Of a stretch of 63,939 nucleotides of DNA, positions 967-63,636 are shown in pieces. Below the pieces are notes generated by a model that saw only the letters and a list, made by a program, of their open reading frames with translations, did not search any database and had not been told where the DNA came from. The position numbers and the translations under genes were made by a program. The number at the start of each line of letters is the position of its first letter. The first letter of the stretch is position 1. The DNA is from a virus (lineage: Duplodnaviria > Caudoviricetes): positions 1 to 63,939 of IMG/VR virus record IMGVR_UViG_3300024310_000002. One strand, written 5' to 3'.

Positions 967-1296
967 ATGGCTGTTACTCCCGAAGGTAAGATCAAGAGAA
1001 TGGTGCAGAACGTACTAGGGGAGTTCTTCGACGATGCCCCCGGAGGCGGGCTCTATAAATACTGGCCTGTGCCGTCGGGGTTTGGAGCTTCTTCGCTAGA
1101 CTGCATTCTGTGCTATAGAGGCAAGTTCATCGGTATTGAGACGAAGGCGCCGGGGAAGAAGCCTACTCCGCGGCAGGAGCTGACCATCAAACAGATGCAG
1201 CATGCTGGCGGCATGGTGTTCGTGATCGACAGCGAGAAGGGCGTGCACGACCTGCGCGTCACGCTGCAGGGATTAAAAGATGCAAACGATCGTTAG
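967..1296 (+). CDS. VRR-NUC domain PD-(D/E)XK nuclease
   Basis: PEGKI...LD...FIGIETKAPGKKPTPRQ...GGMVFVIDS pattern; adjacent to SNF2 helicase. Confidence 0.88.
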   Translation: MAVTPEGKIKRMVQNVLGEFFDDAPGGGLYKYWPVPSGFGASSLDCILCYRGKFIGIETKAPGKKPTPRQELTIKQMQHAGGMVFVIDSEKGVHDLRVTLQGLKDANDR

Positions 1297-2866
1297 TGGC
1301 AAGCACAAGATCATCGGTGTTCCTCGCACTGAGCAAGTGGCGGGGTTGTTTCCGATGGGCAAGCCGCACCGCTTCATGGATCAGGATTACATCTTGATCC
1401 CGCACAGCGAGACCGAAGTGTATCTTCTTCGTAAGATCGGCTTCGATGCGCCCGCGCCGATACTCTCACAGTATGATTTCCCGCAGACAGTGGGCAAGCC
1501 CGCGTTCGAGGTGCAGAAGAAGACCTGCGCGCTTCTGACTATGGCGCAGCGGGCCTACGTCCTCAACGGCATGGGCACAGGCAAGACCAAATGCGCGATC
1601 TGGAGCTTCAGGTATCTACAGAAGATGAAGCGCGCGAAGCGTATGCTCGTGGTGGCGCCTCTCTCTACGCTGACGTTCGTGTGGCAGCGAGAGGCGTTCG
1701 AAGTGGACCCTTCTATCAGGGTTAACGTGCTCTACGGCGACGCGAAGAGGCGGCGCACGAGGCTGGCTGAGGACGCGGACATCTACGTCATCAACCACGA
1801 CGGCGTCGGCGTCATCGCCAAGGAGCTCGCGGCGTTGGTGGCGGCCGGCGAGATCGATGTTCTCGTCATTGACGAGCTGGCCGTGTACCGCAACAAGTCC
1901 GAGCGCACGAAGGCCATGGTAGCGCTCGCTGCGAAAATCCCGTGGGTGTGGGGCATGACTGGATCGCCCATGCCGCACGAGCCGACTGATGTGTTCTACC
2001 AGTGCAAGGTGGTCACCCCCACCACGGTGCCGCGCTGGTTCACGCACTTTCGGGCGGCGCTGATGTACCCCCTTGGGCACGTGCAGAAGTGGGTGCCGAA
2101 GGCCGACGCTGTGGAGCAGGCGTACGACGTCATGCAGCCGAGCGTTAGATTTACGATCGACGAGGTGCAGGAGTTGCCGCCGTGCATCGAGCGCTACGTC
2201 GATGTTGAGATGGGGCAGGTGCAGAAGAAAGTCTACAAAGAGATCGTGGCCCACTGTCAGAGCGCCTTCACCAACGGCGAGCTGATCACGGCAGCGAACG
2301 CTGGCGCCGCCATGGCGAAGCTACTCCAAATCAGCTTGGGCTGGGTCTACACGACTGATGCTCAGGGCCAGAAGCAGGTGAAGCCGCTCGACAACAAGAA
2401 GCGGATCGAGGCGCTGATCGATGCGATCGAGAGCACAGATCGAAAAGTGATCGTGTTCGTCCCCTACATCCATGCGCTGGATGGCATCGGGCAGGCGCTC
2501 GCAGCGGAGAAGATCGACTATGAGACTGTGTCGGGCGATACGCCGTCTAAAGAACGTAATCGAATTTTCAACGTCTTCCAGAATACAAGTAAGCTTAAGG
2601 TTCTACTGGCACACCCGCAGTGCGTGGCGCATGGAATTACTCTTACGGCAGCGGACACAGTCGTGTGGTTCGGACCAATTACCTCGCTCGAAACCTATGA
2701 CCAAGCCAACCACCGGATCAAGCGAGTAGGCCAGAAGCACAAGCAGCAGATCATACATCTGCGGAGCACCTCCGTCGAGAAACGTGTGTATGGCATGCTC
2801 ATTGCGAAGCAGGACGTGCAGAAGCAGTTCCTGAAGATGTTCGCTGACAGCAATGAGGTGTGGTGA
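1280..2866 (+). CDS. SNF2/DEAD-like superfamily 2 helicase
   Basis: Walker A MGTGKT, VIDE, MTGSP, HGITLT, QANHRIKRVGQ motifs. Confidence 0.92.
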   Translation: MQTIVSGKHKIIGVPRTEQVAGLFPMGKPHRFMDQDYILIPHSETEVYLLRKIGFDAPAPILSQYDFPQTVGKPAFEVQKKTCALLTMAQRAYVLNGMGTGKTKCAIWSFRYLQKMKRAKRMLVVAPLSTLTFVWQREAFEVDPSIRVNVLYGDAKRRRTRLAEDADIYVINHDGVGVIAKELAALVAAGEIDVLVIDELAVYRNKSERTKAMVALAAKIPWVWGMTGSPMPHEPTDVFYQCKVVTPTTVPRWFTHFRAALMYPLGHVQKWVPKADAVEQAYDVMQPSVRFTIDEVQELPPCIERYVDVEMGQVQKKVYKEIVAHCQSAFTNGELITAANAGAAMAKLLQISLGWVYTTDAQGQKQVKPLDNKKRIEALIDAIESTDRKVIVFVPYIHALDGIGQALAAEKIDYETVSGDTPSKERNRIFNVFQNTSKLKVLLAHPQCVAHGITLTAADTVVWFGPITSLETYDQANHRIKRVGQKHKQQIIHLRSTSVEKRVYGMLIAKQDVQKQFLKMFADSNEVW

Positions 2867-3153
2867 TGAAAAAGAAGAGCAAGCTGGAGGGATTTACGTT
2901 TGGCTTCTCGGAAGGCACCGAGCGTCGAGGAGTAGGCGACTACGACAACGTCATCTGGGATAACGGTAAAGTGTGCATTGCTCTTTTAGCCGAAGGTAGC
3001 GGGTACAGGCTGGACTATGGCGACGAGCGTTCCGATAGTCCCGCCGGTTTCACTCGCAGACAAAGCGAGATATTTAGAGAGCTCGACCCCATGCTCATTA
3101 GATGCGTAGCCCTTCAATGGGTAACCCACGGAGGTAACATCGAACATGACTGA
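2860..3153 (+). CDS. Hypothetical protein (weak LEIEC-like C-terminus)
   Basis: Fills the gap between helicase and next gene; C-terminal PMLIRCVALQW. Confidence 0.6.
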   Translation: MVMKKKSKLEGFTFGFSEGTERRGVGDYDNVIWDNGKVCIALLAEGSGYRLDYGDERSDSPAGFTRRQSEIFRELDPMLIRCVALQWVTHGGNIEHD

Positions 3154-3559
3154 CCAAACGCAAAACCTCACATCCAACGTCGACGTCGAGAAGCGCGTCG
3201 GCCAGTATATTAAACTTCGCGACCTCAAGGCAGAGATGAAGGAGAAGCACGAGAGCGAGCTCAAGCCCGTGAACGAGACGATGGCTATGATCGAGGAGGA
3301 GCTCAAGAGCGCGCTCAACTCCGTCAACGCCACCAACATGAAGACCGATGCGGGGACGGTTTCGATCTCCGTTAAAGCGTCGGCGAGTGCCGCAGACATC
3401 AACGCTTTCTGGACGTGGGTGATCACGCAGGGAGCGTTTGACATGCTCGACAAAAAGCCTAACGTCACTGCCATCACCGAATACGTGAAGCAGCACGGCG
3501 TCCCCCCGCCGGGCGTGAACTACAGCACCTATCAAGGTATCGGCGTGCGTCGCAAGTAA
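3146..3559 (+). CDS. Conserved coiled-coil phage protein of the replication module (Gam/gp157-like)
   Basis: GGAGG RBS; N-terminal coiled coil then KTDAGTVS...PPPGVN, typical of PolA/SNF2 modules. Confidence 0.6.
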   Translation: MTDQTQNLTSNVDVEKRVGQYIKLRDLKAEMKEKHESELKPVNETMAMIEEELKSALNSVNATNMKTDAGTVSISVKASASAADINAFWTWVITQGAFDMLDKKPNVTAITEYVKQHGVPPPGVNYSTYQGIGVRRK

Positions 3560-3608
3560 TAGGGAAGCGACGCTAACAACACCCACCATCTGGTAAGCAG
3601 GAGAGAAA

Positions 3609-4853
3609 ATGTCGAACGCAATCGTAGTGCCCCCAACGTTCAACGGGCAGGTCGCAGCCGTCTTCCAAGGGCAGCAGGCCGGGGATGATCTTTCGGGCGG
3701 TATCACTGGAGGCTACGGGCTTCTCAAATATCGCGGCAAGGTCTGGTCGGTCCAGCACAACGGCAACAGCGTGACGCTGATGCGTGAGGACGGCGATGGG
3801 CCGCGCGGCTCCGTCGATCTCGTGATCGTCAAGGCGAACGCCCACCTCTCGAAGACGTGGTATGAGCAGGGCTGGGACGAGAACAACAACAATCCGCCGG
3901 ACTGCGCGTCGGCGAACGGGATCGTGCCGGACGCGGGCGTCCCGAAGCAACAGAGCGCCGTATGCGCCACGTGCCCCCGCAACGCTTGGGGCTCGGCGCC
4001 GAACGGCGGCAAGGGCAAGGCGTGCGGCGACCATCGCCGGCTCGCCGTGGTCCCGCTGACGGACCTGCGCAACGAGTTCTATGGCGGCCCCCTGCTGCTG
4101 CGCTGCCCCGCTGCGTCGCTGCAGGACATGGCGGCGTTCGACAGTCGCTATAAAGGTCTCGGATATCCCTACTTCACAATGGGGATCAAGGTCGGGTTCG
4201 ACCCGGCCGAGAGCTATCCGAAGTTCACGTTCGCCGCGATCCGCCCGCTCACCGAGGACGAGGGTCGGATTGTCATGGAGCTCCGGAACTCCCCGGAGAC
4301 CGCCCGCGTGATCCACGAGGGCACCGCGCCGGCTCAGGCGGCCGTGGCTGCTCCCGCACAGGGCGCCTTCCTCGAACAGCTGCCGGCCGGAACGCCGACG
4401 GCTGCAGCGGCTCAACCGGCGCCACAGGTGCAGGTTCAGCCAGTGGCTCAACCAGCTCCCCAGCCCGTTGTCGCTCAGCCCGCTCCAGTCGCCGCCCAGC
4501 CCCAACCCGCAGCTGTCGCCCCGGCTCCGAGCGTGGCTCCAGCTCCAGCTACGGCTGGAGGATTTGGAGCTGCAAGTCCTCAGCCCGCTCCTGCACAGGC
4601 TGCAGCAGCTCAGCCTGCGGCCACGCAGCCCGCCCAGCGGGCCGCCGTCGCCATGACAGGGTTCGGGGCGGTTACCCCCGAGGTAGCGGCTCCCGTGGCT
4701 CAGCCGGCTCCACAGGCCACGCCAGCGCCGGTCGTGGCTGCTCCTGAGGTCGTTCAACCGGCTCCCGTGCAGCCGGCCCCGGTGTCCCCCGGTGTTGTGT
4801 CCGCGTTCGAGGGGTCTATCGACGAAAGGCTGAACGCTCTTCTGGCGCAGTGA
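3609..4853 (+). CDS. Putative ssDNA-binding/annealing protein with Cys cluster and long Pro/Ala/Gln tail
   Basis: PDC...CATCPRNAWGS...GKAC motif; low-complexity linker; position in replication module. Confidence 0.65.
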   Translation: MSNAIVVPPTFNGQVAAVFQGQQAGDDLSGGITGGYGLLKYRGKVWSVQHNGNSVTLMREDGDGPRGSVDLVIVKANAHLSKTWYEQGWDENNNNPPDCASANGIVPDAGVPKQQSAVCATCPRNAWGSAPNGGKGKACGDHRRLAVVPLTDLRNEFYGGPLLLRCPAASLQDMAAFDSRYKGLGYPYFTMGIKVGFDPAESYPKFTFAAIRPLTEDEGRIVMELRNSPETARVIHEGTAPAQAAVAAPAQGAFLEQLPAGTPTAAAAQPAPQVQVQPVAQPAPQPVVAQPAPVAAQPQPAAVAPAPSVAPAPATAGGFGAASPQPAPAQAAAAQPAATQPAQRAAVAMTGFGAVTPEVAAPVAQPAPQATPAPVVAAPEVVQPAPVQPAPVSPGVVSAFEGSIDERLNALLAQ

Positions 4854-4864: not shown

Positions 4865-4895
4865 ACCGGAGGGGTATCATCCCCTCCGGTTGTTT
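4865..4895 (+). terminator. Intrinsic terminator-like hairpin
   Basis: ACCGGAGGGG-TATCAT-CCCCTCCGGT then TGTTT, just after stop 4853. Confidence 0.65.
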
Positions 4896-4908
4896 GGCAG
4901 GGACACCC

Positions 4909-7900
4909 ATGAACTACGAACAGGCACGAGAATATCTGGCACGTGTTGTGCCATGGCCACAGCCCGGGGAACCGGGCTTTGTCAACTTGCACTGGACCTT
5001 CCCACCCACGAACCCCCGCCCCGACGGTAAGCCGGCATGGACCGGGCGCGCCGTGAAGGATGCCGCCGAGGCAGCGCGCGTGCTCGAGTTCGCGTTGAAG
5101 TCCGGCTCCAACACGCTGGACGTCTACGCCTGCATGAGCTCGCAGCTGGAGGCGAAGGCGCAGACGACCAAGGGCAAGAAGCCGTTCAGCTACAACGCCC
5201 CCATCCGGCTAGCCACCAACGCGATCTCTCTCAAGAGTTTTTTCATCGATGTAGATTTCGGCAAGCCGGACAAGGTTGATCCTGTCACCGGCGCCAAGAC
5301 GAAGATTTCATACGCCACGGCCGAAGAAGCGATTACAGAGGTGATGTTGTTCATCTCGAAGGTCGGCCTGCCCAAGCCCACGATGGTGGTGCACTCGGGT
5401 GGTGGCTTTCATTTTTACTGGTGTGTCGCGCGCGCACTCACGCCCGCTGAATGGCTCCCGATCTCCTTCGCACTGGCCGAAGCTGCGAAGGCGTATGGGC
5501 TGCTGTGCGATACTCAGTGCACTGTCGACACTGTGCGCGTGCTTCGAATTCCCGACACGCTCAATAGGAAGCAGGAGCCTGCTCGCCATGTACGCTTTGT
5601 TGGTCCACGCCTCGATTTCGATTATAATGTCGATCGGATCAGTACACCTCTTCAACCTTACGTGGGAAGAGTTCATTCGCCGGCGGCGGGAGGAGGGGTG
5701 GATCGAACGCTCTTTCCGCCACGTACATTCACCGCTGATATTTCTGAGCTTGGCATGGGGCTCGATAGTCTCTGGCCTGCTCCTGATCTGGATCACGTTG
5801 CTCTGGCATGCGGTTTTGTTCGCGATGCGATCCTCACCGGTGGCGTGCATCTATCCAACCCCCTCTGGAACATTACCACTCTGATCTCAACGTTCACCAA
5901 GGGCGGCCGTGCAGATGCACACCGCATGGGAGACAAGCATGCGGGTTACTCGAAAGAAAGCACCGACGAGTTCTTTGATCGAAAGGATCGCGAAAAATCT
6001 GAACGCGGTCTTGGCTGGCCCTCTTGCGCCACGATCTCTGCGACAGGTGCAGCAGCTTGTCGCGGATGTGCGCTATTTGTACAGGGAAAATCGCCGCTTA
6101 ACTTCGAGCAACGAGCAGCTAGCACGCCTGCGGTCGGAAGCAATCCGGGACTTGGCAGCGTGCCAGCTACAGCTGCAGTTGTTGGACAGGGAGCTCCAAT
6201 TACGGCGGGAGCCTTCGGACCCGCGCAAGCAAACGCAGCGAGTGCTCAACATAATCCAGCAGCACCTCAGCAGCTGGTAACCTCACAAGGTAACAGCGGC
6301 GATCTCCCCGCGGGCTACATCCGTAACGCCGCTGGCATAGTGTCGAAGGTGGTCCCTGATCCTGCGAACCCGCAGAACCAGATTTCTATCCCGATCAGCG
6401 ATTACCCGCTTCTGAATGCGTGGCTGCAGAACGAGCCGCGTATGCTTCACTTCGATAGCGTGGTGGATCGCAACAAGACTGCTCAGATCAGTATCGAGCT
6501 TGAGTGTCTTGCTACGACTGAGATGCGCAAGGTGCTGCAACGGCAGGGCTTCATGCTCGCGGCGAACGACAAGACCGCAGGAGATTTTTTCGTGTCATGG
6601 GTGAAGAAGCTTCAACAGGTTCGCGACAGTGTAGCAAGTGCACCCTTCGGGTGGCAGGACAAAAACGGACAGACGGAAGGTTTTATATTTGGTGGTCAGC
6701 TATGGACGCCGAATGGAAGCTCGCCGAGCGCTACCGCAAACCCGGTGTTAAACCATCAGTACAGGCCGAGAGGCTCCGACGCGTATTGGCTGGATGCAGT
6801 AAAGCTAGTCACATCGCAAGGACGGCCAGATTTGGAGGCCATAGTGGCGTCAGCTTTCGCTGCACCCCTTGTGATGTTCACTGGCCACTTGGGTATGCTC
6901 ATGAGCGCGTACAGCAAAGAGAGCGGCATCGGCAAGTCTACTGCATTAAGGATCGCGCAGGCTGTTTGGGGCGATCCCATTCGCGCAGTGCAGTCGTTGT
7001 CGGATACGCAGAATTCTGTCATGAGAAAGATCGGCGAAGTTCGTTCGCTGCCCGTGTACTGGGACGAGCTCAAGACGGACGAAGATACGAAGAAGTTCGT
7101 CAACATGACGTTCCAGATCGCACAGGGCAAGGAGAAGTCGCGGCTCAATCAACATGCTCAGATGAAAGAGCCGGGCCACTGGCAAACCCTCGTAGTGTCA
7201 GCGTCGAACGACAGCTTGATCGATCACGTGACGCAGCAGACACAGACCACGCTGGCGGGGCTCTACCGTATCTTCGAGTACACTGTGAAGCCTCCTACGG
7301 CGACGACTATTGGCTTGGTGGATGTATCCGAAGCGACCATCCGCCTCAGCAAGTTGAACACCAACTACGGGAGTGTTGGGCTGAAATATGCGCAGTGGCT
7401 TGGAGCGAACTTCAAGCAGTGCGAAGTGGACATGGCGACACTGAGTAAGCAGCTGAACCTTGAAACCTCTGCGATGCAGGAGGAGCGATTTTGGATATCT
7501 TTGATTGCTACCATCTTGCTCGGCGCACGATACGCCAACAATCTGGGCTATGCGGTGTTCAACGAGCCGTCCTTGAAGGATTTCTTGCTCAACTCGCTGA
7601 GCACTATGCGCGCGCTACGGGGACGCCAAACCGTGGACTTAACCCAGACTATCAATATCTCTTCTATAATGGCAGCCTTCCTGAAGGACATGCAGGCGCA
7701 GAACAAGGTGATCCACACGGACCGGATACACATTGCTCCGGGTCGGCCGCCAAACCCGAATAGTGCTAACGCGGTGAAGGTGCTCAAACCATCGGATACT
7801 TCACGGCTCAATGGTATCGTCGTGCAAGTCGGCCACAACGACAAGCTCATGCGTATTGCCAGTGCAGCGTTCGGTGAGTGGCTGAAAAAATCAGGCAAGT

Positions 7901-8061
7901 CGCGGCACCTCCTGATGGAGGCGTTACAGGCGAGCATGGCCACACAGCATGTGGTCGGGTTTCTTGGCGGCGGTACAGGGCTCGCTTTCGCCAAGGAGAA
8001 TATCATCCAGATCGACCTCTCGAGCTCGAACGATCTCAACTTCGTGGACGAAATCCAGTGA
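4909..8061 (+). CDS. Primase-helicase: RepB/AEP-type primase fused to DUF927/P-loop ATPase
   Basis: FIDVD, HSGGGFHFYW, RVLRIPDTLNRK primase motifs; FGW, SGIGKST, YWDE, GKEKSRL in C-terminal half. Confidence 0.85.
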   Translation: MNYEQAREYLARVVPWPQPGEPGFVNLHWTFPPTNPRPDGKPAWTGRAVKDAAEAARVLEFALKSGSNTLDVYACMSSQLEAKAQTTKGKKPFSYNAPIRLATNAISLKSFFIDVDFGKPDKVDPVTGAKTKISYATAEEAITEVMLFISKVGLPKPTMVVHSGGGFHFYWCVARALTPAEWLPISFALAEAAKAYGLLCDTQCTVDTVRVLRIPDTLNRKQEPARHVRFVGPRLDFDYNVDRISTPLQPYVGRVHSPAAGGGVDRTLFPPRTFTADISELGMGLDSLWPAPDLDHVALACGFVRDAILTGGVHLSNPLWNITTLISTFTKGGRADAHRMGDKHAGYSKESTDEFFDRKDREKSERGLGWPSCATISATGAAACRGCALFVQGKSPLNFEQRAASTPAVGSNPGLGSVPATAAVVGQGAPITAGAFGPAQANAASAQHNPAAPQQLVTSQGNSGDLPAGYIRNAAGIVSKVVPDPANPQNQISIPISDYPLLNAWLQNEPRMLHFDSVVDRNKTAQISIELECLATTEMRKVLQRQGFMLAANDKTAGDFFVSWVKKLQQVRDSVASAPFGWQDKNGQTEGFIFGGQLWTPNGSSPSATANPVLNHQYRPRGSDAYWLDAVKLVTSQGRPDLEAIVASAFAAPLVMFTGHLGMLMSAYSKESGIGKSTALRIAQAVWGDPIRAVQSLSDTQNSVMRKIGEVRSLPVYWDELKTDEDTKKFVNMTFQIAQGKEKSRLNQHAQMKEPGHWQTLVVSASNDSLIDHVTQQTQTTLAGLYRIFEYTVKPPTATTIGLVDVSEATIRLSKLNTNYGSVGLKYAQWLGANFKQCEVDMATLSKQLNLETSAMQEERFWISLIATILLGARYANNLGYAVFNEPSLKDFLLNSLSTMRALRGRQTVDLTQTINISSIMAAFLKDMQAQNKVIHTDRIHIAPGRPPNPNSANAVKVLKPSDTSRLNGIVVQVGHNDKLMRIASAAFGEWLKKSGKSRHLLMEALQASMATQHVVGFLGGGTGLAFAKENIIQIDLSSSNDLNFVDEIQ

Positions 8062-8351
8062 CGAGAAACATCGTCGACATCATTCAGGAGCAACACGTGA
8101 ACCAGCCCACCCCCACAGAGAAGGCCCAAGTGCTCGTTACCTTTGCGAGTAACGCGCAGGTCATGTTCCGGTTCAACACCGTGAAGAAGGCCGAGAAGGA
8201 GTACAAGGCGCTCCTTGCTGCGTGGAAGAATAACGATAAGTTCCACCTCGTCCACGGTGATATGTTCGATGGCGTCGTCGATCTCTACAGCGTGCTGTAC
8301 ATCTGCTTTGTCGATCACAGCGTGGTAGCGAAGTTCGTCCCAATCCCGTGA
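8058..8351 (+). CDS. Hypothetical protein
   Basis: GTG start overlapping primase stop (GTGA); phage-like codon use. Confidence 0.65.
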   Translation: MTRNIVDIIQEQHVNQPTPTEKAQVLVTFASNAQVMFRFNTVKKAEKEYKALLAAWKNNDKFHLVHGDMFDGVVDLYSVLYICFVDHSVVAKFVPIP

Positions 8352-11037: not shown

Positions 11038-14000
11038 CTAGCGAGTGTTGTAGATGCCTTCCTCGAGGAAGCGCTTATCACGCTTGTTCGGCGTGATCCC
11101 CAGCGTCGACGTCTTGGCCGCCTTTGCATCACGGCGCGCCTTGTCCGTCAACTCCTTGGCGGTGATCTTGCTCTCGGCCGGCGCCGTCATGTTGTACTTC
11201 TGGATTGCCGCCCACGCCTTCGCTTTGTGATCGGGCGCCGCCTCGACCCACGCGTTCGTCAGCGAGCTGCGCTCCTCCTTGGCCCGGGAGCTCGCCCTGT
11301 AGAAGCTGCTGCGCTGTGCCCCTTCCTCGCTCTCCCGCGCGTTACCGAACCCCAGCACGCGCAGAGCGGCCTCAGAGGGTGCGTACGGCGCGCTCGACTG
11401 TTTGCCGCCCGCGGTCTTCTTCCCTTCGGAATACTGCCTGTAGGCACGGATGCTGTCGCTCGCTGCCTTGAGCGGGATCAGCTGCTCCGCGGCCTTCGTG
11501 AAGTTGCCGCTCGCGATGTTGCTGAGACCCTTCACGTAGTCGGCACCGAGCGAAACAACAGGCCCCGACACGCTGTCGAACAGCCACGTCTTGACGTCGC
11601 TCTCTTTGTTGCTCTTGGGCTCGCCAAAACTTAAAACACTATCAAGGCCCATGCGAGACAGATCGAGATTAAGAAGCCGAGGAAGGCCACGAGTAGCCAC
11701 TTCACCGCCTGTCTTTCCAAAGAGCGCTGCAGCTTGTCGGCGTATCTCATTCTCGACATCACTCCATCCAACCCCCGTGACGGGGCTGGCGGCCATAACC
11801 AGATATTTGAATGGCTCCGTGGGCAGGCCCAGAGCCCCAGCCATCGCCATATGCGTCGCAGCGATGCCGACCAGCGTCTTGATTGCACGAGCGCGATCCC
11901 CCGGTTCTGCGTTGCGGATAGCGTCACCGATTTGCGACCCGATCAGCTGATACATTCCTTGGCCGTACTTCTTGAACTGAAGTGCGATTTTGAGCAAAGG
12001 ATGATTGAACACCGCAGGGGAGTTCGTCGGCGAGTAGTTGAACTGCGTGCTGTTCACTGCGTCGGTGGCCGCGCGCGTAGCTGCATCGTGAGACGCGCCT
12101 TTGCTGCGCTCCAAGCGATACGTCGCGAGCGCCGTCACTGCCCGATTGATTGTTTCAATCGCGCGAGGCATCTCCCGAGATACACCTTCCATGTACGCAA
12201 GCATTGCATCCGCTTTGCCACCCACGCCTTCGTAGCTGCGGGCCAAGTGCTGAACTTCCATGCCGGCATCGGCATCGATCACTCCCTCGTCGATGTTGTG
12301 TTGGATCATCGCCCGCTCGTCCGGTGACAGCTTGCGCATGACCATGCTCATGAGGTCCTGTTTGGTCTCCTTGCCGCGCGCCGCGGTCGCCGTGCCCTTG
12401 GCTCCGGCCTTGACCACACCGCCTGCATTGATGTCGGCGTACGCCTTCCCCATCGCCGCGAATGACCTACCCACACCGTACTTGCCCACCAGATAGGGCA
12501 TCGTGACCATGCCCGGCTGCATCGCGTTGATGATGCTATAGGCCGGCGACGCCAGCTTGTCGGTGAAGCTCGCGCTCAGAAGCCGTTTCACGACCGGCGA
12601 GAACTTCCCTCCCTGATCGAACCCGTTATCGCCCTCGACGCGATCGCGCACCTCGTTGGAGATCGCCGTGCGAGCGTACTGCCCCGTCTTGCTGTGGTCG
12701 CGATCCAGCTGCTCGGCCATGGCCTTGAGCCCGGCCTCCAGATCAGGACCATGTTCAAGCCGCGCCAGATACCGCGAGCTGCTCCCTGCGTAGTCAACGG
12801 TGTTCTGCACGAGGTCTTCGCTGTAGCCCTGCACGCCCCTGCGAGGGAGCGCGCGCGAGGAGACCCTCGTTGAGCCGTGAGAAGCTAGCGACGCTTCTTC
12901 AACGGCGCGTCGGAGCGCAGCTTTCTCTGTGGGTGATGCTGACTTGTAAGCGTCAGAATGCTCAAGTTTTTTAACGAGGCGGCTAAGTGCTGTCGAGAGC
13001 TCGGCACCTTGTCGAGCGTTAATCTCCAAACTGCGAGGAACCACCTCGTGGACAGCAATGCTTCCATCCTTAGCGAGTTCAGCGGCACGCGCAATTGCGG
13101 CACGTTTACCTTGGACGAACTCGACGTGTCGGTTCTGGACGGTGACCCGATAGCGCGCAACACTGTCCAATTCATTGGCCCCAGACTTCTCGCCTGTTTT
13201 GCTGTCGACCCAGACTTTTTTAAGGGCCGCCTGCAGGGGTGATGCCTTGACATACTTCTCGGCCTCCTCTCGCGAGCCGAACTCGAACTCCACATCCCCC
13301 CCTTCGTTCTTAATAACTGTCGCGTTACCCGGTGAGGTAACCTTGTAATCGCCTTTTACGACGTGGTCACCACGCCGCATCAATGGCACATAGGGTCCTT
13401 CAATCTTCGAGAGCTCGCCGGCGTCCTCGAGGACGTCCATATTCGACCCCAGCAGAAGCTTATCAGCGTCAGTAAGATTACCCTCATGCACGCGTCGTGC
13501 CAGCGCTGCATCCTCGTGCCCCATCAGCTTGAGAATTTGGTTCTCGATGATGCCGAGCGACATCTTGTTCTGCTCGTCGCGGAAGTACTTCGTCGTTTCG
13601 TGGAACGCCGCTTTGTACTCCTCCGGCAAGGCGTTATAGCGCTTCACCAATTCCGGATGCTGGGCCTTCGCCCATACACCGCGCATGGCGTTCTTCCCAA
13701 GGTGCGCGTTCTTCGCATCGTTGAGCGACACGTCTGGATGCACGTTGGCCACGGTGGCGTCGTGCATGAGCGAGCTCAGCTCTTCATATGCTGCACGGTT
13801 CTTCGCCCGCAGTGCTACAAGGTTGCGCACGATCGGCTCGGACGCTTGGAACATCCTGTCGCCAGTGACGCGCATGCGTTCGATGGCGCTGTGGATTTTC
13901 CGGACGGGGTTACCCTCACCGAAGTAGTGATCCGCGATCCGCGCGATGTTGTCGAACGTGCGAAGCTTCAGAGCTTTGGGCGCGCTGACGTTGGCCTCGC

Positions 14001-29643: not shown

Positions 29644-29649
29644 TACAGG

Positions 29650-44160: not shown

Positions 44161-44369
44161 GTGTTGTAAAAATGTCACAGAGGGGGGTGGGATGGTTTTA
44201 TGGTCCGGTATATTACCGTGGGACCCAATAAAAGCCCGGGCCCCGGGGGTGGGGGGGCCTGTCCACTTACCCCCGGGGGTAACGTCCCCACACCTTGAGT
44301 GTAGGAACGCCCCGCCACTGTGGCACGGAGGATCACCTGCACCACCTGAGCAACGGCCAAAACAAGCAT

Positions 44370-44760
44370 GCTCTTAGGCGGCGAGAGCTTTACTACCTCT
44401 CGTCTAGTGGTTCCCCCTTAACCGCCGTCGGGCTGTTACCTCCCAAGGTAACAAGATGACAACGGGCTAGGTATACCGGGTAGATGCGCCACGAAGCAGG
44501 CGCGCGGGACCGGGAAGCCCTAGCAGAGTTGCTAGGCAGCGGGACAACATCGAACCATCTGAGCGTCGGAAAGACAACTACTCAACTATGAGATGGTTCG
44601 GTCTAAGTTGTCCCCAGCATCCTTTGCCAATGCCAAGGTTGGATGCTGTGAGCACTAGAGGTAGCGTTTGGAAGCGCATCGCAAAGTCTGGAACGTGACG
44701 ACAGGATGGCAGCGCAAGCTGTGCGTTTGAAAGTCTAAGTCCTACGCCTCTAGTGCTCTC
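44370..44760 (+). ncRNA. Large structured non-coding RNA candidate
   Basis: ORF-poor; helices GGGACAAC/GTTGTCCC, CGAACCATCT/AGATGGTTCG, CAGCATCC/GGATGCTG, GAGCACTAGAGG/CCTCTAGTGCTC; strand inferred. Confidence 0.5.
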
Positions 44761-45338: not shown

Positions 45339-45454
45339 CATCGAACGATTAAGGCAGCTCGCCACATTGTTGTGCTCGACTTGGGCAAATAAGGCAGCAA
45401 CGCCACATTCGTGGAACCTTAATCACCCACCATTGGGTAACCTTCGGAGGTAAC

Positions 45455-46321: not shown

Positions 46322-46486
46322 ACGGCTACCCACAAGCGTGTTACCTTGCGGGTAATGCTCACTGTGCCGGTCGCAGATGACCGCGCCACGGTGGGCCGCA
46401 AGGTCAAAGAGGCACTCACCGATAAGTTCGAGGTGTGCTACCCCTACGTCACCGTCATTCAGGAGGACAATGTCGAGCAGGCATAA
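46322..46486 (+). pseudogene. 54-codon ORF with ACG in place of ATG
   Basis: GGGAGG RBS, 5 nt, ACG GCT ACC... open to TAA. Confidence 0.45.
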
Positions 46487-48843: not shown

Positions 48844-48999
48844 ATGCACGTAGTTCAATTGGCCTACCGAACCCATGGGGTCGTAGAACAACTGATTGCT
48901 GCGATCGCGTATGCGTGACCAGACCAAGGCTGTCGGTAAGTAATGGCGGCATATCAATCAGGGTAGATGCAGAGCCTAGCCAACTCTGCCGTGCATACC
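48844..48999 (+). ncRNA. tRNA-framed RNA 4
   Basis: ATGCACG/CGTGCAT-ACC, TAGTTCAA..GAAC with D-loop insert, CTGATTG/CAATCAG, GAT, GCAGAG/CTCTGC. Confidence 0.7.
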
Positions 49000-49013
49000 T
49001 TTGGAGGTAACAA

Positions 49014-49764: not shown

Positions 49765-49908
49765 CTCAAATACCGGACTGGCATCCGGCACGTCAAGAGC
49801 AGAGCCGACGACACGCGAAAGGAAAGGCACGATGCGGGTGCATCCTGTTCCGAGTACGACGACGGAGCGAAAGGCTCGATGCAGCATGGTAACCTGCCGG
49901 GGTAACCA
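49755..49908 (+). ncRNA. tRNA-framed RNA 5
   Basis: CCCCG/CGGGG, TAGCTCAA..GAGC with D-loop hairpin, GAGCC/GGCTC with ~65-nt insert, GAT, GCAG/CTGC, ends ACCA. Confidence 0.7.
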
Positions 49909-50937: not shown

Positions 50938-51141
50938 TCGCGCGTAGCTCAATGACTGCTGGGGGCATGTGCTCCTAGAGCGAGAGCGGGCAGGTGTCAG
51001 CCTTCGCCATGCGCTGCAGCGCCTCTGACAAGGAAGTCACGCCAAAGAGCGGCCTACAGAACGTTAGTAAGGACCACAAGTCCCGAAACCAATCGAGGCA
51101 AATGACGATGTAGGAGGTGGTCGCCCCTGCCGCGCGAACAA
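50938..51141 (+). ncRNA. tRNA-framed RNA 7
   Basis: TCGCGCG/CGCGCGA-ACAA, TAGCTCAA..GAGC with D-loop insert, ~120-nt central insert, GAT, GTAGG/CCTGC. Confidence 0.7.
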
Positions 51142-51157
51142 TACCCACGGAGGTAAC

Positions 51158-51734: not shown

Positions 51735-52106
51735 ATGCAAGTTTGTATATCCACCCGAGATTGCCGCGCTGCTGTCGGGGCGGCCATCGCAGCCCTTATC
51801 CAGAAAGTCGCCAGCGACAAGGAGGCAGTCACCAAGACAAGCCTCGACAATCTCCTCACCGGCGCCATCCACAACGGCCTCGACGTGAACGAGGCGCGTC
51901 GCAAGGAGATGACCGAGATGGTCGATCGCGATGTCGAGCACATGATGAAGTCGCACCCGGGCAACGAACTGCTTCAGGTGCTCAACAACTACGTCGACAT
52001 GCTCGCCTACCACAAGGGTGAGTTCATCACGATCGATGATCAGGACTTCTCGCTGATCAAGGCGCACCTGCCGGCCGGCGAGAAGAGCGAAGAGATCGCG
52101 GCGTAA
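51735..52106 (+). CDS. Hypothetical protein
   Basis: AAGGAG RBS. Confidence 0.7.
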   Translation: MQVCISTRDCRAAVGAAIAALIQKVASDKEAVTKTSLDNLLTGAIHNGLDVNEARRKEMTEMVDRDVEHMMKSHPGNELLQVLNNYVDMLAYHKGEFITIDDQDFSLIKAHLPAGEKSEEIAA

Positions 52107-52121
52107 CCTTTGGAGGTAACA

Positions 52122-53686: not shown

Positions 53687-53740
53687 GGGAGTACCCGGAC
53701 GCCGCTGCCGGGAGTATCAGCGGATACCCACAGAGGTAAC

Positions 53741-55648: not shown

Positions 55649-55680
55649 CTACCCACGACAAGTAACCCACGGAGGTAACG

Positions 55681-56450: not shown

Positions 56451-57730
56451 CGCCGCAGCAGGAGAAGCTGTGGAGCGATACGCGCGCCGCCCTGATCTGG
56501 CACTGCCCGGCGTTCTCGCACATCTTCTACAGCATGCTGCAGAACACTGGCAACAAGCAGAACGCCGTGTTCACGGATGATCCCGCGATCCCGATCGCTG
56601 CAACCGATGGCAACAACCTGATCTTCAACGTCGGGCCGAAGGGGTTTTTCAGGTTCAACCTGAACCAGCGCGTGTTCATCGCGAGCCACGAAATTCTCCA
56701 CTGCATCTTCAATCACTGCGGCATTACGTTCATGCTCAAGATGCGCGGCAAGGTGGCGTACGCCGACGGCAAGACGCTGCCGTTCGACGCCGAGCAGATG
56801 AACATGGCCGAGGACTATGTCATCAACGCCATCCTAAGCGAGAGCAAGGTGGGGCAGTTTCCGACCGACGAGAACAATCAGCCGTTGGGCCTGCTGGATG
56901 CAGCCATCGCAACGTCGAAGGACAACTCGCTGGACATCTACCGGAAGATTTTCAAGCAGTCGAACAGCGGCAAGGGAGGCGGTAAGGGGAGCCAGCCGGG
57001 CCAAGGCAAGGGACGCTTCGACGTGCATCTCGATCCCGGCACCTCGATGGGTCAGGACCCGGTGTCGGCGAACAACAACAGAAATCCGGCGCAGTGGGAC
57101 ACGGAAGTGGCTGCGGGTATTGCAGCGGCCAAGGCAATGGGTAAACTGCCGGCCGAGTTGCAGCGCGCACTCACGGACATCCTCACACCGAAGGTCGATT
57201 GGCGTGAACACATCAAATCGCTCTTTGCTCGCAAAGTTGGTTCTGGGGCTTTTGACTGGGCTCGCCCTGATCGTCGGCTTATCACTCGTGATATCTACGC
57301 GCCCGGACGATCTGGTTTTGGTGCTGGCACTGTGGTGGTTGGTATTGATACCTCCGGCTCAGTTGGTAGCAAAGAGCTGGACATGTTTATGGCTGAGGTC
57401 TCAGGTATCCTCGAAGAGATCAAGCCCAAGCGCCTCGTGATGATCTGGTGCGATGCGGCTGTGAACCGCATCGACGAGTGTGAAGACATCAGCGACCTGA
57501 ACACGATCCGGCGCAAGGGCGCTCCGGGTGGTGGCGGCACGAGCTTCATCCCGGTGTTCGAGGCAGTCGCGAAAGAGGGGCTGGAGCCGGAAGCTCTCGT
57601 ATACCTCACCGATGGCATGGGTAGCTTCCCGCGTGCGGCGCCGGCGTACCCGGTGATCTGGGGCAACATCTACAAGGGCTCGAAGTATCCTTGGGGTGAC
57701 GTCGTCGACATCCCGAAGCAGGTGGAGTAA
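56423..57730 (+). CDS. DUF2201-type metallopeptidase-VWA protein
   Basis: IAATDG, HEILH, NMAEDYVIN; MIDAS IDTSGSV, GGGGTSF, LTDG. Confidence 0.88.
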   Translation: MQTIKQVALTPQQEKLWSDTRAALIWHCPAFSHIFYSMLQNTGNKQNAVFTDDPAIPIAATDGNNLIFNVGPKGFFRFNLNQRVFIASHEILHCIFNHCGITFMLKMRGKVAYADGKTLPFDAEQMNMAEDYVINAILSESKVGQFPTDENNQPLGLLDAAIATSKDNSLDIYRKIFKQSNSGKGGGKGSQPGQGKGRFDVHLDPGTSMGQDPVSANNNRNPAQWDTEVAAGIAAAKAMGKLPAELQRALTDILTPKVDWREHIKSLFARKVGSGAFDWARPDRRLITRDIYAPGRSGFGAGTVVVGIDTSGSVGSKELDMFMAEVSGILEEIKPKRLVMIWCDAAVNRIDECEDISDLNTIRRKGAPGGGGTSFIPVFEAVAKEGLEPEALVYLTDGMGSFPRAAPAYPVIWGNIYKGSKYPWGDVVDIPKQVE

Positions 57731-57764
57731 CCCCGCTAAGTAACCACCCAACAGGAGAACGTGT

Positions 57765-58293: not shown

Positions 58294-58318
58294 ATTCCCT
58301 ATACCCACGGAGGTAACT

Positions 58319-59503: not shown

Positions 59504-59609
59504 CGAAAACGGCGGGCTCCCAAGGAAGAACCCGCCGTCCGTCTCCCACCCACAGGAGGCGCTTCTCGCGAAGCCCTCCTAACGTAAGTTACCCGAGGAG
59601 GTAAGTCAA

Positions 59610-59972: not shown

Positions 59973-61907
59973 ATGGCTGAGCGCTTCACGATCGACTTCG
60001 AGACCTATTACGACAAGGACTATTCTCTCCGGAAGATGACGCCGGTGGAGTACGTCCTCGACCCGCGTTTCGAAGTGATCATGCTGTCCGTGAAGCGGCC
60101 GGGTAAGCCCGTGATCAACCTTCACCCTGACAAGATAGGAGCGTTCTTTGCGCTACTGGACCCCGATGACACAATTGTGGTCACTTATAATTCTCTGTTC
60201 GATATGTGCATATGTGCTTGGCGCTATAATTTTGTTCCAAGGCTCATGGTGGATGCGATGGGTATGGTGCGTGCTTGGCACGGGCACGAGCTTCGCAGCG
60301 TTGCTCTGGCTGTTGCTGCCCCGCACATCATAGGGCGGCACAAGGGTAACGCCGTCCACAAGATGCAGGGGCTTCACTACCAAGACATCGTCAACGCCGG
60401 CTGGATGCAGGAGTACGAGCAGTATTGCGGAGACGATAGCGAGCTCGCCGAGGGCATCTTCGACAAGATCATGTCGGAGGGGTTTCCAGTGAACGAGCTC
60501 CTCGTCATGGACCACGTCCTGCGCATGGCCGTCGTGCCGCAGTTCGCCGTCAACGGCGCCGAGCTGCAGATACACTTGCAAGACATTCTAAACGACAAGG
60601 CCAACCTGATGGCAGCGTGCGGGCTCACGTACGACGCCAACGGGAAATGCCCCGAGCTCATGAGCAACCCGAAGTTTGCGGAGCTGCTTACCTCGCTGGG
60701 TATCGAGCCGCCCATGAAGATTTCGCCAACCACTGGCAAAGAGACGTTCGCATTTTCGAAGGCGGACAAGGAGTTCACCGATCTCGAGGATCACCCCGAC
60801 ACGAACGTGCAGGCGCTTGTCGCAGCGAGGCTGGGGCACAAGAGCACGATCGAAGAGACCCGCACGCAGCGCTTCATCGCGATCTCGCAGTTGGAGTGGC
60901 CAGTCAGCTACCTCGCCTACAGGGGGCTCCCTGCGGGTGCCAAGCTGATCCCCATGCCCATCAGATACGGGGCCGCCCACACGCACAGGCTGGGAGGCGA
61001 CTGGAAGCTGAACGTCCAGAACCTGCCGAGCCGCGGCGTGGTGAACCATCTAAAGCGCGCACTCATGTCGTGGCTGGGCTGGTATGTCGTCAACACTGAC
61101 AGCTCGCAGATCGAAGCGCGAATTGTTGCTTGGCTCGCCGGCGAGTGGGAGTTGCTGCGACAGTTCGAGTTGGGGCTCGATCCCTACAAGATTTTCGCAG
61201 CGAAGGTTTTCCAGCTACCCGATACCTCGCAGGTAACCGCCGAGCAGAGATTTCTAGGCAAGACTTCGATCTTGGGTCTGGGCTTCGGACTGGGCTGGAT
61301 CAAGTTCAAGCATCAGGTGCGCGTCAAGTCGCTCGAAGCTGTGAAGATCACAGGCAAGGGCCGCGAGCTCATCCTCACCGACGACGAAAGCCTCAAGATC
61401 GTCAACACGTACAGGAGCACGTATCCCGGTGTGCAGTCTATTTGGAAGGCTCTCAATTCTGCCATCCCTATACTCGCTGGCGCTCCCGGGAGCTTTAGCA
61501 TTGGCCCTTGTGTGTTCTATAAGGGAAAAATCTCGCTCCCCAACGGTCTATATCTGTACTACGACAACCTTCGACAGACGCCCGATGGATGGACGTACAC
61601 TCACTCAGGGGAAACCCGACGCCTATACGGTGGAGCACTCCTCGAAAATATTGTGCAGGCGCTCGCGCGCTGCATCGTGATGGATGCAGAGGTCAGGATC
61701 GCCGCAAGGCTCAAAGCGGCTGGCATGGGTTTCATCCAGTTGGCGCTTCAGGTGCATGACGCGTTGGCTTACACAGTGCCCAGTGCGATGGTTACCTCCG
61801 TGCGTAACATCATGCAGGAGGAGATGAACAGGAGACCTGCATGGGCACCGGACTTGCCACTCGCCTGCGAGACAAAATACGGACCCAATTACGGAGATGC
61901 AAAGTAA
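59973..61907 (+). CDS. DNA polymerase family A with 3'-5' exonuclease
   Basis: IDFETY, YNSLFD, YCGDD; NVQNLP, DSSQIEAR, RFLGKTSILGLGFG, QVHD. Confidence 0.95.
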   Translation: MAERFTIDFETYYDKDYSLRKMTPVEYVLDPRFEVIMLSVKRPGKPVINLHPDKIGAFFALLDPDDTIVVTYNSLFDMCICAWRYNFVPRLMVDAMGMVRAWHGHELRSVALAVAAPHIIGRHKGNAVHKMQGLHYQDIVNAGWMQEYEQYCGDDSELAEGIFDKIMSEGFPVNELLVMDHVLRMAVVPQFAVNGAELQIHLQDILNDKANLMAACGLTYDANGKCPELMSNPKFAELLTSLGIEPPMKISPTTGKETFAFSKADKEFTDLEDHPDTNVQALVAARLGHKSTIEETRTQRFIAISQLEWPVSYLAYRGLPAGAKLIPMPIRYGAAHTHRLGGDWKLNVQNLPSRGVVNHLKRALMSWLGWYVVNTDSSQIEARIVAWLAGEWELLRQFELGLDPYKIFAAKVFQLPDTSQVTAEQRFLGKTSILGLGFGLGWIKFKHQVRVKSLEAVKITGKGRELILTDDESLKIVNTYRSTYPGVQSIWKALNSAIPILAGAPGSFSIGPCVFYKGKISLPNGLYLYYDNLRQTPDGWTYTHSGETRRLYGGALLENIVQALARCIVMDAEVRIAARLKAAGMGFIQLALQVHDALAYTVPSAMVTSVRNIMQEEMNRRPAWAPDLPLACETKYGPNYGDAK

Positions 61908-62461: not shown

Positions 62462-62464
62462 TAC

Positions 62465-62914
62465 ATGGCCAAGACCCCACCCAAGGACTACTTCGCCTCC
62501 GTGATGTTCCCCGGCACGAAAAAACTATCGATCGTGTCGAAGCGTGTCGGCACCAAGGAGCGACTTCATCAGATCGCAGTCGTCACCAACGAGAGCGTTG
62601 CTGATCGGATCGTCGAAGCATTGAACCATCATCAGGGCGCGCTTGAGAAGCTGGATGTGCCGACGCAGAGACTGCTAGACAATACGAAAGAAGAGCTCGC
62701 CAAGCAGCGCAAGCTGCATTCGCAGTACCATAGCGAAGCAAATTCGCTGCGTAGCGAAGCGATGTCGCTTCGGCGCGAAAATCGTGAGCTCAAGGACGAC
62801 ATCGATAGGTTGAAACGTGGAACCGATGCATTGAAATCACAGCTCCAAAATGCTATCTGTGAGCGCGACGCAGCGCATGACCTTATGCGCAAGCATGCGT
62901 TGACCCCCACCTAG
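62465..62914 (+). CDS. Coiled-coil hypothetical protein
   Basis: AAGGA RBS; heptads. Confidence 0.7.
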   Translation: MAKTPPKDYFASVMFPGTKKLSIVSKRVGTKERLHQIAVVTNESVADRIVEALNHHQGALEKLDVPTQRLLDNTKEELAKQRKLHSQYHSEANSLRSEAMSLRRENRELKDDIDRLKRGTDALKSQLQNAICERDAAHDLMRKHALTPT

Positions 62915-62922
62915 GAACTCAC

Positions 62923-63636
62923 ATGGCCATTGTTACTTCCACCCGTACCGGTGCTCCACGCGTCAAGCCATTCGCGTGGAGCTTCTCCCGCCTCAAGAAC
63001 TTCGAGGTATGCCCCAAGCGACATTGGGAGATCGACCTCGCGAAGAACTATAAGGAGCCGGGAGGACAGCAGCTGGACTGGGGCAACCATGTCCATGATA
63101 TGTTAGCTGTGCGTTGTGGCTCTGACCGCACGCCTCTCCCGCCTGATCTGCAGATGTACGAGCCGTGGGCCGTGAAGGTGCTAGGTACTACGCCGGCAGA
63201 GAACATCTTCGTCGAGCAGAGCTTGGCGATCACCAAGAACTTTACCCCGACGGGTAACTTCGACAGCGATGCTTGGCTGCGCGTGAAGTGCGACTTCTAT
63301 AAGGTGGTCGGTGATGTCGCGCTGGCTGTTGACTGGAAGACGGGGAAGATTATCGAGGACAGCGTGCAGCTGGCGCTCACTGCTGCTTGTATCTTTGCCA
63401 AGCATCCCGAGGTGAAGGCCGTGCGAAGCACGTACGTCTGGCTCAAGGAGGATGCCGAGAGCAGCGAGACGTTCTTCCGCGAGGACATGCCCACAGTCTG
63501 GAGAAATATATGGCATCGGATCGAAGCGATGGAGACGGCGTTCCTGCACACGAACTATCCGCCAACGCCAAGCGGGATTTGCGCGAAGTACTGCGCGGTG
63601 AAGAGTTGCCCGCACAATGGCAAAAGTACCCGCTAA
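62923..63636 (+). CDS. Cas4/RecB-like PD-(D/E)XK exonuclease
   Basis: WSFSRL...CP, GNHVH, E..L, D, VDWKTGK, QL, C...C....CPH. Confidence 0.88.
   Translation: MAIVTSTRTGAPRVKPFAWSFSRLKNFEVCPKRHWEIDLAKNYKEPGGQQLDWGNHVHDMLAVRCGSDRTPLPPDLQMYEPWAVKVLGTTPAENIFVEQSLAITKNFTPTGNFDSDAWLRVKCDFYKVVGDVALAVDWKTGKIIEDSVQLALTAACIFAKHPEVKAVRSTYVWLKEDAESSETFFREDMPTVWRNIWHRIEAMETAFLHTNYPPTPSGICAKYCAVKSCPHNGKSTR

Follow-up and report, generated by a model that had tools for sequence, protein, structure and literature searches.

Short dyad-symmetric repeats dispersed over phage genomes have been reported from several actinobacteriophage clusters for more than 10 years without a function. In the Cluster O mycobacteriophages (Corndog), a 17-bp dyad-symmetric repeat, 5'-TGTTCGGNNNCCGAACA, is present in more than 30 copies over a genome of 60–70 kb; it consists of short inverted arms around a free centre, is denser in the non-structural part and lies to about one third in coding regions, with many copies in short intergenic gaps, and the phages that carry it have no integrase or stable lysogeny (PMC4351075). 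Its authors predicted a dimeric DNA-binding protein with a role other than promoter control (PMC4351075). Here, we describe a palindrome, GTTACC-N6-GGTAAC, dispersed over IMG/VR virus record IMGVR_UViG_3300024310_000002, a single contig of 63,939 bases which represents a whole podophage genome and is referred to below, at its full length, as the window. In the traits just listed, the Cluster O repeat and its phages are similar to the palindrome and its genome, and this repeat is the closest known phenomenon, by resemblance of kind and not by homology. It differs in sequence, in its arms (7+3+7) and in the host phylum. It is described from one closely related cluster, whereas the word of the window persists to about 40% protein identity; it is not closely linked to translation starts, whereas about 40% of the copies in the clade of the window are; and no codon-phase rule, such as holds in the window clade, is reported in those parts of the paper that deal with the repeat (PMC4351075). 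A literature search, which did not cover subscription journals, yielded no published description of the window's palindrome. Our data extend the phenomenon to podophages of soil proteobacteria; new relative to the Cluster O kind are a much deeper conservation and explicit rules of compatibility with coding (codon phase, reuse of stop codons and ribosome-binding sites).

Partial likenesses were found in two further systems. In Microbacterium phages of Cluster EG, an 18-bp inverted repeat, GATCAACCNNGGTTGATC, lies in short intergenic regions upstream of starts and is kept across diverged genomes, as in the window clade; it differs in having 8–10 copies, at the right genome end only and 14–22 bp from the starts, and intragenic placement is not a feature of it in the published description (PMC7302621). 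The SAS of Cluster K resembles our motif as a conserved word with a ribosome-binding site just before a subset of starts, and the ESAS as an imperfect inverted repeat. As described, the SAS is a 13-bp asymmetric word, present in one orientation in the non-structural half and not intragenic, and the ESAS has 17-bp arms with a variable 4–13-bp spacer (PMC3203893). The window motif, in contrast to the SAS, is palindromic, about half intragenic and present in structural genes; only its start-proximal subset is SAS-like.

On the basis of sequence comparisons, we propose with moderate confidence that the palindrome is a predicted double-stranded DNA binding site for a clade-specific phage-encoded protein. 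The window contained 32 copies at no more than two mismatches (5 perfect, 18 with one mismatch and 9 with two). The first-pass annotation of this DNA had listed perfect copies at 13324, 26017, 33300, 44435 and 47201, another 25 copies with one or two mismatches (including those at 50899 and 53074) and four N5 variants at 8480, 35914, 46340 and 61221. All of them were recovered at these positions; two further copies at up to two mismatches begin at 54559 and 60687, and one extra N5 variant at 4671. Dinucleotide shuffles contained on average 1.01 and at most 4 copies at up to two mismatches, compared to the 32 observed, and perfect copies appeared in 0 of 100 shuffles. In 300 codon shuffles, in which all protein sequences and codon usage were retained and intergenic DNA was scrambled, the means for zero, one and two mismatches were 0.07, 0.85 and 5.05 (maxima 2, 3 and 12) vs. 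5, 18 and 9 observed. The enrichment thus survived both kinds of shuffle, which the first-pass annotation had proposed as a check, and in view of the codon shuffles the class with zero or one mismatch is real; about half of the two-mismatch class is expected by chance. The copies at 17141, 36229 and 54559 were not retained in G001, a relative 75% identical to the window (5 and 9 of the 12 arm bases for the first two, respectively), and are doubtful members of the motif.

The spacing was also specific. When spacers from N0 to N20 were scanned, N6 gave 5, 18 and 9 copies with zero, one and two mismatches and N5 gave 2, 3 and 3; all other spacings had no perfect copy and at most one one-mismatch copy each. 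The everted arrangement, GGTAAC-Nk-GTTACC, had no perfect copy and was not enriched. In a motif-blind search for spaced inverted repeats, TTACC-N6-GGTAA ranked highest in the window (10 copies vs. 0.04 expected), and the same word was the top motif-blind signal in G001 and in the cultured Rhizobium phage RHph_TM29 (MN988463; TM29 below). To describe the anatomy of the site, sites were ascertained on eight core bases only, T.ACC-N6-GGT.A, in three genomes, which yielded 66 sites vs. 1 per genome for the reversed control. The half-site was G(78%)-T-W-A-C-C-Y: position 1 was G in 103 of 132 half-sites, position 3 was T in 116 and A in 16 but never C or G, and position 7 was a pyrimidine in 126 of 132. 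The outside flanks of the core sites were unbiased and not T-rich. The full word is GTWACCY-N4-RGGTWAC, with the arms GTWACC/GGTWAC fixed and the centre free apart from Y7/R12. The following copies are considered below (window coordinates; no strand is assigned to any of them).

973..990: two mismatches; codons 3–8 (VTPEGK) of the VRR-NUC gene 967-1296; arms 11/12 in G001
3121..3138: GTAACC...GGTAAC, 7 nt upstream of ATG 3146, with GGAGG in the spacer/right arm
4671..4687: N5 variant with one mismatch within open reading frame (ORF) 3609-4853
6277..6294: in frame (VTSQGN), closing the hypervariable primase-helicase linker; kept in 10/10 genomes, upstream flank unalignable
8136..8153: one mismatch; 75 nt past the primase-helicase stop codon
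8480..8496: perfect N5 variant within ORF 8348-8566
13324..13341: perfect, in frame (VTSPGN) in the gene of the 2466-aa virion protein; arms 11/12 in G001
15602..15619: one mismatch, 2466-aa gene, in the other permitted codon phase; no G001 alignment
21928..21945: one mismatch, in frame (VTPEGN) in acyltransferase gene 21592-22038; arms 11/12 in G001
26017..26034: perfect, in frame (VTPTGN) in gene 25432-26715; arms 12/12 and flanks 26/60 in G001
29649..29666: minus-strand junction; the right-arm TAA ends gene 29650-29904, and the ATG of 27877-29643 follows 5 nt on
33300..33317: perfect, in frame (VTPTGN) in gene 32427-33545
35914..35930: perfect N5 variant within the portal gene
37981..37998: one mismatch, in the ORF preceding large terminase gene 38046-39494; arms 12/12 and spacer 6/6 in G001
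44266..44283: in the stretch without genes that separates the leftward from the rightward block
44435..44452: perfect, in the same stretch without genes as 44266..44283
45437..45454: junction copy directly against ATG 45455 (GGAGGTAAC-ATG)
46340..46356: N5 variant with one mismatch
47201..47218: perfect, in frame (VTSAGN) in gene 46706-48016
48994..49011: degenerate junction copy with two mismatches in the 5' arm; ATG 49014 2 nt on
49889..49906: left-arm TAA is the stop of ORF 49725-49892
51140..51157: degenerate junction copy directly against ATG 51158
52103..52120: junction; left-arm TAA is the stop of gene 51735-52106, followed by ATG 52122; arms 12/12 in G001
53723..53740: junction copy directly against ATG 53741
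55662..55679: junction copy; ATG 55681 1 nt on
57727..57744: degenerate; left-arm TAA is the stop of gene 56423-57730
58300..58317: degenerate junction copy; ATG 58319 1 nt on
59588..59605: junction copy; ATG 59610 4 nt on
61221..61237: N5 variant with one mismatch in the DNA polymerase gene
61791..61808: in frame close to the 3' end of the DNA polymerase gene, with one mismatch; 12/12 arm bases and 6/6 spacer bases kept in G001
63241..63258: one mismatch, in frame in the PD-(D/E)XK exonuclease gene; arms 12/12 in G001

At 11 sites orthologous between the window and G001, the arms were identical in 125 of 132 bases (95%), the spacers in 51 of 66 and the flanks in 440 of 660 (67%); two non-conserved sites were excluded from this comparison, and with them the arms stand at 139 of 156. 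In the primase-helicase gene, a hypervariable linker rich in indels ends with a motif copy that was present in all 10 genomes compared, including TM29. The window proteome contained seven VTxxGN peptides vs. 0.25 expected from composition, all seven being motif copies, and each was encoded with GTT/GTA, ACC and GGT, which make up 24%, 31% and 23% of their codon families. The nucleotides, not the peptide, are under selection. The VTxxGN peptide as the selected entity is ruled out: half of the copies are non-coding, the N5 form and a second codon phase exist, and the codons are fixed against usage. A recurrent peptide of this kind can arise as a by-product of a DNA signal. Shuffles, symmetry and conservation together bear out the view of a selected, genome-wide, dyad-symmetric site.

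The closest cultured relatives of the window phage are four syntenic Rhizobium phages of the RHph_TM29 type (primase-helicase 42% and portal protein 58% identical). TM29 is cultured on Rhizobium phaseoli, so both the binder and its function are directly testable. The scan of related phages which had been suggested in the first-pass annotation gave 37 copies at up to one mismatch in TM29 (15 of them perfect), 22 in G001 (a 63-kb IMG/VR relative) and 9 in a partial relative, G002, with 0 in each for the reversed control. In an IMG/VR scan with a 14-base form of the motif, almost all of the listed loci were single-site, and three multi-copy contigs, including G004 and G005, were among the matches listed. 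G004 (65.5 kb, 51% G+C, with a primase-helicase 39% identical to that of the window) had 56 core copies vs. 1 in the control, and the partial contig G005 had 6 vs. 0. The primase-helicases of motif-bearing relatives were 39–81% identical to that of the window, and the G+C content of motif-bearing genomes spanned 51–62%. A 5.6-Mb metagenome-assembled genome (MAG), G008, had 16 of its 18 copies on a single 61.6-kb phage contig, C21, a relative of the window phage. This MAG is labelled Candidatus Solibacter; since the motif is confined to C21, a binning artefact is more likely than evidence of a host.

Five other phages (Sinorhizobium phiM6, Rhizobium RHph_N3_19, Roseobacter CRP-13, HMO-2011 and Pseudomonas Rollin) had 0–1 copies each, and motif-blind searches of these non-bearing phages did not recover the palindrome. 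The 1.52 Mb of Rhizobium etli CFN42 plasmids contained 1 copy vs. 8 for the control pattern. Presence in relatives and near-absence elsewhere indicate that the motif follows the phage lineage and not the host genus, the Rhizobium DNA scanned being that of plasmids. Repeats of their own were seen in two more distant relatives, namely AAGGTAGTAA in seven copies and GGTAG-N7-CTACC in five in Rollin (OR577172), and AGTCC-N6-GGACT in five in HMO-2011 (NC_021864).

This distribution bears on the possibility that the palindrome is a site of a host protein (a global regulator or nucleoid protein) or of a nuclease, nickase or recombinase of host or phage, serving for nicking, as a recombination linker in module exchange or as a Chi-like self mark, which we regard as very improbable. 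Such a role would fit the copies at gene junctions, where homology to G001 also breaks (coordinates compared without a null), and the spread of copies, more even than random in three of four genomes. Placement at junctions is, however, confounded with gene boundaries; two other Rhizobium phages, one Sinorhizobium phage and the 1.52 Mb of R. etli replicons lack the motif, and the range of 51–62% G+C among motif-bearing genomes suggests varied hosts.

The position of the copies relative to genes followed clear rules. In the annotated genome of TM29, 18 of 37 copies lay in the 10% of non-coding DNA and 19 inside genes; most of the non-coding ones ended 1–5 nt before a start codon or began 0–2 nt after a stop codon. 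A uniform heuristic was applied to six genomes, with start-proximal defined as −3 to +12 nt before a start codon (mostly 1–5 nt); it placed 54 of 138 core copies (~39%) in this class, 72 in open frames of at least 100 codons and 12 elsewhere. At junctions, the purine-rich end of the spacer and the right arm (GGA-GGTAAC) form a Shine-Dalgarno sequence, with GGA, AGA, AAA or GAA standing before the right arm at start-proximal copies. The stop codon of the upstream gene is often the TAA within the arm (52103, 49889, 57727 and 29649), which accounts for the repeated occurrence of GTAACC as 5' arm. Codon phase 0, which reads Val-Thr-x-x-Gly-Asn, was used by 52 of the 72 intragenic core copies; the second phase creates a TAA stop, and the third needs a TTA codon, which makes up 1.5% of Leu codons. 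In the window, G001 and TM29, the distances between copies were more regular than expected at random (coefficient of variation 0.62–0.66 vs. 0.93–0.96, P = 0.001–0.03); in G004, an even spread was not seen. The even spread mildly favours a need to cover the entire genome, as opposed to controlling a few promoters.

We suggest that the protein would read two inverted half-sites, GTWACC(Y), with centres about one helical turn apart and the central 4–6 bp unread, and that the phage would maintain about one site per 1.5–3 kb over the entire genome. As 93% of the genome is coding, the sites would sit where their cost is lowest. In short intergenic gaps, the right half would be reused as a Shine-Dalgarno sequence and the arm TAA as the upstream stop codon; inside genes, the sites would be placed in tolerant loops, in the only codon phase with neither a stop nor the rare TTA codon. 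The motif helps start-codon placement in the annotation of the clade.

As for the molecule that is recognized, the palindrome is best read as a predicted duplex-DNA target for a protein with two equivalent reading heads. Besides a site for a dimeric DNA-binding protein, the first-pass annotation had considered a 6-bp RNA hairpin recognized by a protein; the former stood, in the form of two equivalent heads on duplex DNA, and the latter did not. Its further ideas, a protein that coats, silences or organizes the genome and a parS-like or packaging role, are conjectural. An RNA-level element would be a 6–7-bp mRNA hairpin carrying a Shine-Dalgarno sequence, acting as a translational operator, processing site or stabilizer for an RNA-binding protein or nuclease of phage or host. 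The start-proximal position of ~39% of the core copies, with the right half as ribosome-binding site, would suit it, and perfect intragenic copies could fold at −8 to −12 kcal/mol. The stem sequence is nevertheless fixed and the loop free, which is the opposite of the pattern in known hairpin-protein recognition, and position 3 accepts A, which breaks the pair of the hairpin as an A·A mismatch, but never C or G. In 66 one-mismatch intragenic copies, read in the direction of the mRNA, 16 changes would preserve pairing as G·U, no excess over the 13 mirror A·C changes (p = 0.71), and departures fell on the 5' arm in 29 and the 3' arm in 37 (p = 0.39). There were no structure-preserving double changes among the nine two-mismatch copies of the window. 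Perfect six-pair complementarity was depleted at ribosome-binding sites (7 of 54 vs. 33 of 84 elsewhere, Fisher p = 0.001), and hairpins predicted in the window were weaker at start codons (mean −3.7 kcal/mol, n = 10) than inside genes (−6.9, n = 11). About half of the copies are intragenic, with no evident use there for an operator or cleavage site, and none of the seven terminator-like sites in 43,500-50,500 overlapped a copy. An RNA element is highly unlikely on these grounds. The tRNA was the sole match of the window to Rfam at the gathering score.

Since the motif is invariant from the window through TM29 to G004, the protein that reads duplex DNA should be among the genes conserved in all three. 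By tblastn, this set comprised the VRR-NUC nuclease, SNF2 helicase, a 137-aa protein, a protein like single-strand-binding (SSB) proteins, the primase-helicase, MoxR, a 74-aa protein, the VWA protein, DNA polymerase, exonuclease, terminase subunits and virion proteins. The binder candidates named in the first-pass annotation fared less well: ORF 8348-8566 had no tblastn match in G001, TM29 or G004, ORF 39331-39702 matched only in G001, and gene 46706-48016 matched in G001 and TM29 but not in G004. All three are poor fits, not being conserved alongside a clade-invariant motif. The leading candidate was the following gene.

4894..8061, + strand: primase-helicase gene, 1055 aa, with a DUF927 helicase and a C-terminal winged-helix-like domain, present in every motif-bearing genome compared

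We tentatively name the winged-helix C-terminus of this self-loading primase-helicase as the putative binder, an assignment that is possible rather than probable and that leans on a structural model. Another conserved protein (the small terminase or an unrecognized regulator) is, taken together, about equally possible. The primase-helicase matched DUF927 in Pfam (2e-23) and resembles SCCmec Cch and SaPIbov1 Rep, with sequence matches to 5dgk (4e-10) and 8tch (3e-6). In the model of its last 266 residues (pLDDT 80), 5dgk and 8tch aligned over the whole length (Z 7.4 and 7.3), and model residues 128-266 (the last ~140 aa) matched the oriT-binding winged-helix protein 5vfx (Z 7.1, 92 aligned, rmsd 3.8). 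Foldseek gave no hit to the C-terminal model at E <= 0.001, the best being 5dgk and 8tch at 2e-3 to 1e-2. The small-terminase-like ORF and ORF 3146-3559 gave nothing meaningful in a sequence search against solved structures.

The initiators of staphylococcal pathogenicity islands (SaPI) offer a precedent. In PriRep5, the SaPI5 primase-helicase, a highly flexible winged-helix C-terminal domain is described as binding 6–7-bp iterons (TGCAACC), some of them inverted (preprint 10.64898/2026.10.17.759575). Iterons of self-loading initiators (SaPI Rep/PriRep5) are similar to the window's site in their inverted half-sites of 5–7 bp and, should our candidate be the binder, in the flexible winged-helix C-terminal domain that reads them, as far as the preprint describes these (10.64898/2026.10.17.759575). 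Flexibly tethered heads would explain both the N5 and the N6 spacing better than a rigid dimer. A further likeness to initiator origins is that the window has one site inside the initiator gene, in its linker (6277), and another two (8136 and 8480) no more than 420 bp downstream. Known initiator origins form one local cluster with an AT-rich unwinding element, whereas the window clade has 25–60 single sites with unbiased flanks.

Contig G003, an unrelated IMG/VR phage contig (33.8 kb, 37% G+C), had four tandem copies of GTTACCT-N4-AGGTAAC at 8784-9533 in a Phage_rep_O gene, directly after the N-terminal Phage_rep_O domain, where they encode a repeated VT(Y/S)LGN. The lambda-type O-protein origin lies inside the initiator gene, and the array looks like an origin of this type built from the identical palindrome. 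By analogy, it suggests that the palindrome can serve as a replication-initiator iteron. A lambda O-type binder in the window was rejected, with no match to PF04492 (Phage_rep_O) at E <= 10.

If the primase-helicase binds, the sites would be dispersed iteron pairs for loading or re-loading of the helicase, or for titration or regulation of the initiator. Possible roles thus include helicase loading or re-loading, initiator titration, transcriptional roadblocks and genome organization. The most specific form, a dispersed (re-)loading site at which two flexible winged-helix tails would grip inverted GTWACC half-sites and provide 25–60 entry points for the replisome, or a genome-wide brake on transcription through initiator occupancy, we consider rather doubtful. 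On this view, the sites would matter enough for essential genes to carry them in frame. If true, it would be a new way to organize phage replication or to couple it to gene expression.

Several observations weigh against the primase-helicase as the binder or against our proposal in general. Iterons of initiators are as a rule grouped at a single origin next to AT-rich DNA, whereas the copies here are single and dispersed, with no AT-rich element adjoining them. With Z ~7, the fold matches are middling and can reflect a common arrangement. The winged-helix-like region is 37% (TM29) and 43% (G004) identical to that of the window vs. 52% and 45% for the helicase domain; being no better conserved than its neighbours, it lends no support to the primase-helicase. 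As the window has no Phage_rep_O, the parallel with G003 is an analogy only. A fast-evolving small regulator could evade a conservation screen by tblastn. A host factor as binder would also speak against our proposal, and this objection is weakened by the near-absence of the motif from the five other phages, the R. etli plasmids and the rest of the MAG.

The possibility of a regulator was weighed separately. The palindrome could be the operator set of a dedicated phage transcription regulator, either a global repressor or a roadblock of the stoperator/KorB type, encoded by an unrecognized small gene and used for shut-off or timing of expression. We think this unlikely, with observations on both sides. 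Dyad symmetry and intergenic enrichment (18 of 37 TM29 copies in the 10% non-coding DNA) are as expected of operators; the divergent control region that separates the gene blocks contains two to four copies (44266 and 44435 in the window; 61350, 62524, 62696 and 62826 in G001; 17675 and 17912 in TM29), and the density of copies is about twofold higher in the early/replication block (window, count at up to two mismatches). Cluster A stoperators and the sites of RK2 KorB and P1 C1 are tens of protein-binding words dispersed in a mobile genome, many of them intergenic, and the window's motif is similar in its tens of dispersed copies of one word, many between genes. Stoperators and P1 operators are, however, asymmetric, oriented with transcription and part of temperate immunity systems, whereas the window site is symmetric without arm bias, and no repressor, integrase or ParB/KorB gene was recognized. 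Neither PHROGs on 84 ORFs nor Pfam on 66 ORFs revealed a classical repressor, an integrase, or a helix-turn-helix (HTH) or ribbon-helix-helix (RHH) protein. The only regulator-like Pfam match was an NrdR-type zinc ribbon at 8348-8566; neither this ORF nor the HTH-like 39331-39702 is conserved in TM29 or G004, whereas the motif is. The ParB family was also missing among the scanned ORFs, not every small ORF having been run against every library. No integrase or immunity module was seen, most copies lie away from promoter-like sequences (scanned in 43.5-50.5 kb only), and both N5 and N6 are tolerated, which is uncommon in repressors that bind as a rigid dimer.

The record is a complete genome. 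An exact 117-bp direct repeat at its ends (1-117 = 63823-63939) is a terminal direct repeat or an assembly overlap and leaves a unique length of 63,822 bp. The G+C content is 60%, and 93% of the sequence is coding. A + strand gene block runs from ~44.8 kb through the genome end to 11 kb and contains small early genes, a MoxR-type ATPase, a VWA/metallopeptidase protein, DNA polymerase, a PD-(D/E)XK exonuclease, a VRR-NUC nuclease, an SNF2 helicase and the 1055-aa primase-helicase. The − strand block at 11-44 kb contains the virion genes (a 2466-aa DarB-like protein, internal virion proteins, major capsid and portal), with the terminase genes as a + strand island within it. The 2466-aa ORF (11038-18438) had PHROGs matches annotated as DarB-like antirestriction, endolysin and minor head protein and includes three motif copies. 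The 414-aa protein 3609-4853 has a Cys-containing N-terminal domain, then ~180 low-complexity residues, rich in P, A and Q, and a short tail that is conserved, a layout like that of phage SSB proteins; its family matches were only PHROGs of unknown function.

Between the leftward and rightward gene blocks, ~730 nt (44055-44784) had no called gene and contained two motif copies. One small ORF comes next, and after it a strongly AT-rich stretch (45090-45330) lies ahead of the first motif-preceded early gene. These two segments are likely a promoter or origin region and may be the site of a non-coding RNA; they had no Rfam match. HMO-2011-type marine podophages were more distant portal matches of the window, and a megablast of 20 kb against the phage collection gave no match. 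In TM29, the orthologue of the primase-helicase (42227-45310) is annotated as 'putative integrase protein', and attL/attR features are placed within genes; because no integrase family was seen in the clade, these labels are probably annotation errors. DNA of the window was present in 20 public runs, all of them soil or rhizosphere metagenomes available as contigs, and no RNA run was listed among them. A tRNA-Met gene (anticodon CAT) is located at 48025-48099 in the early block, directly after gene 46706-48016.

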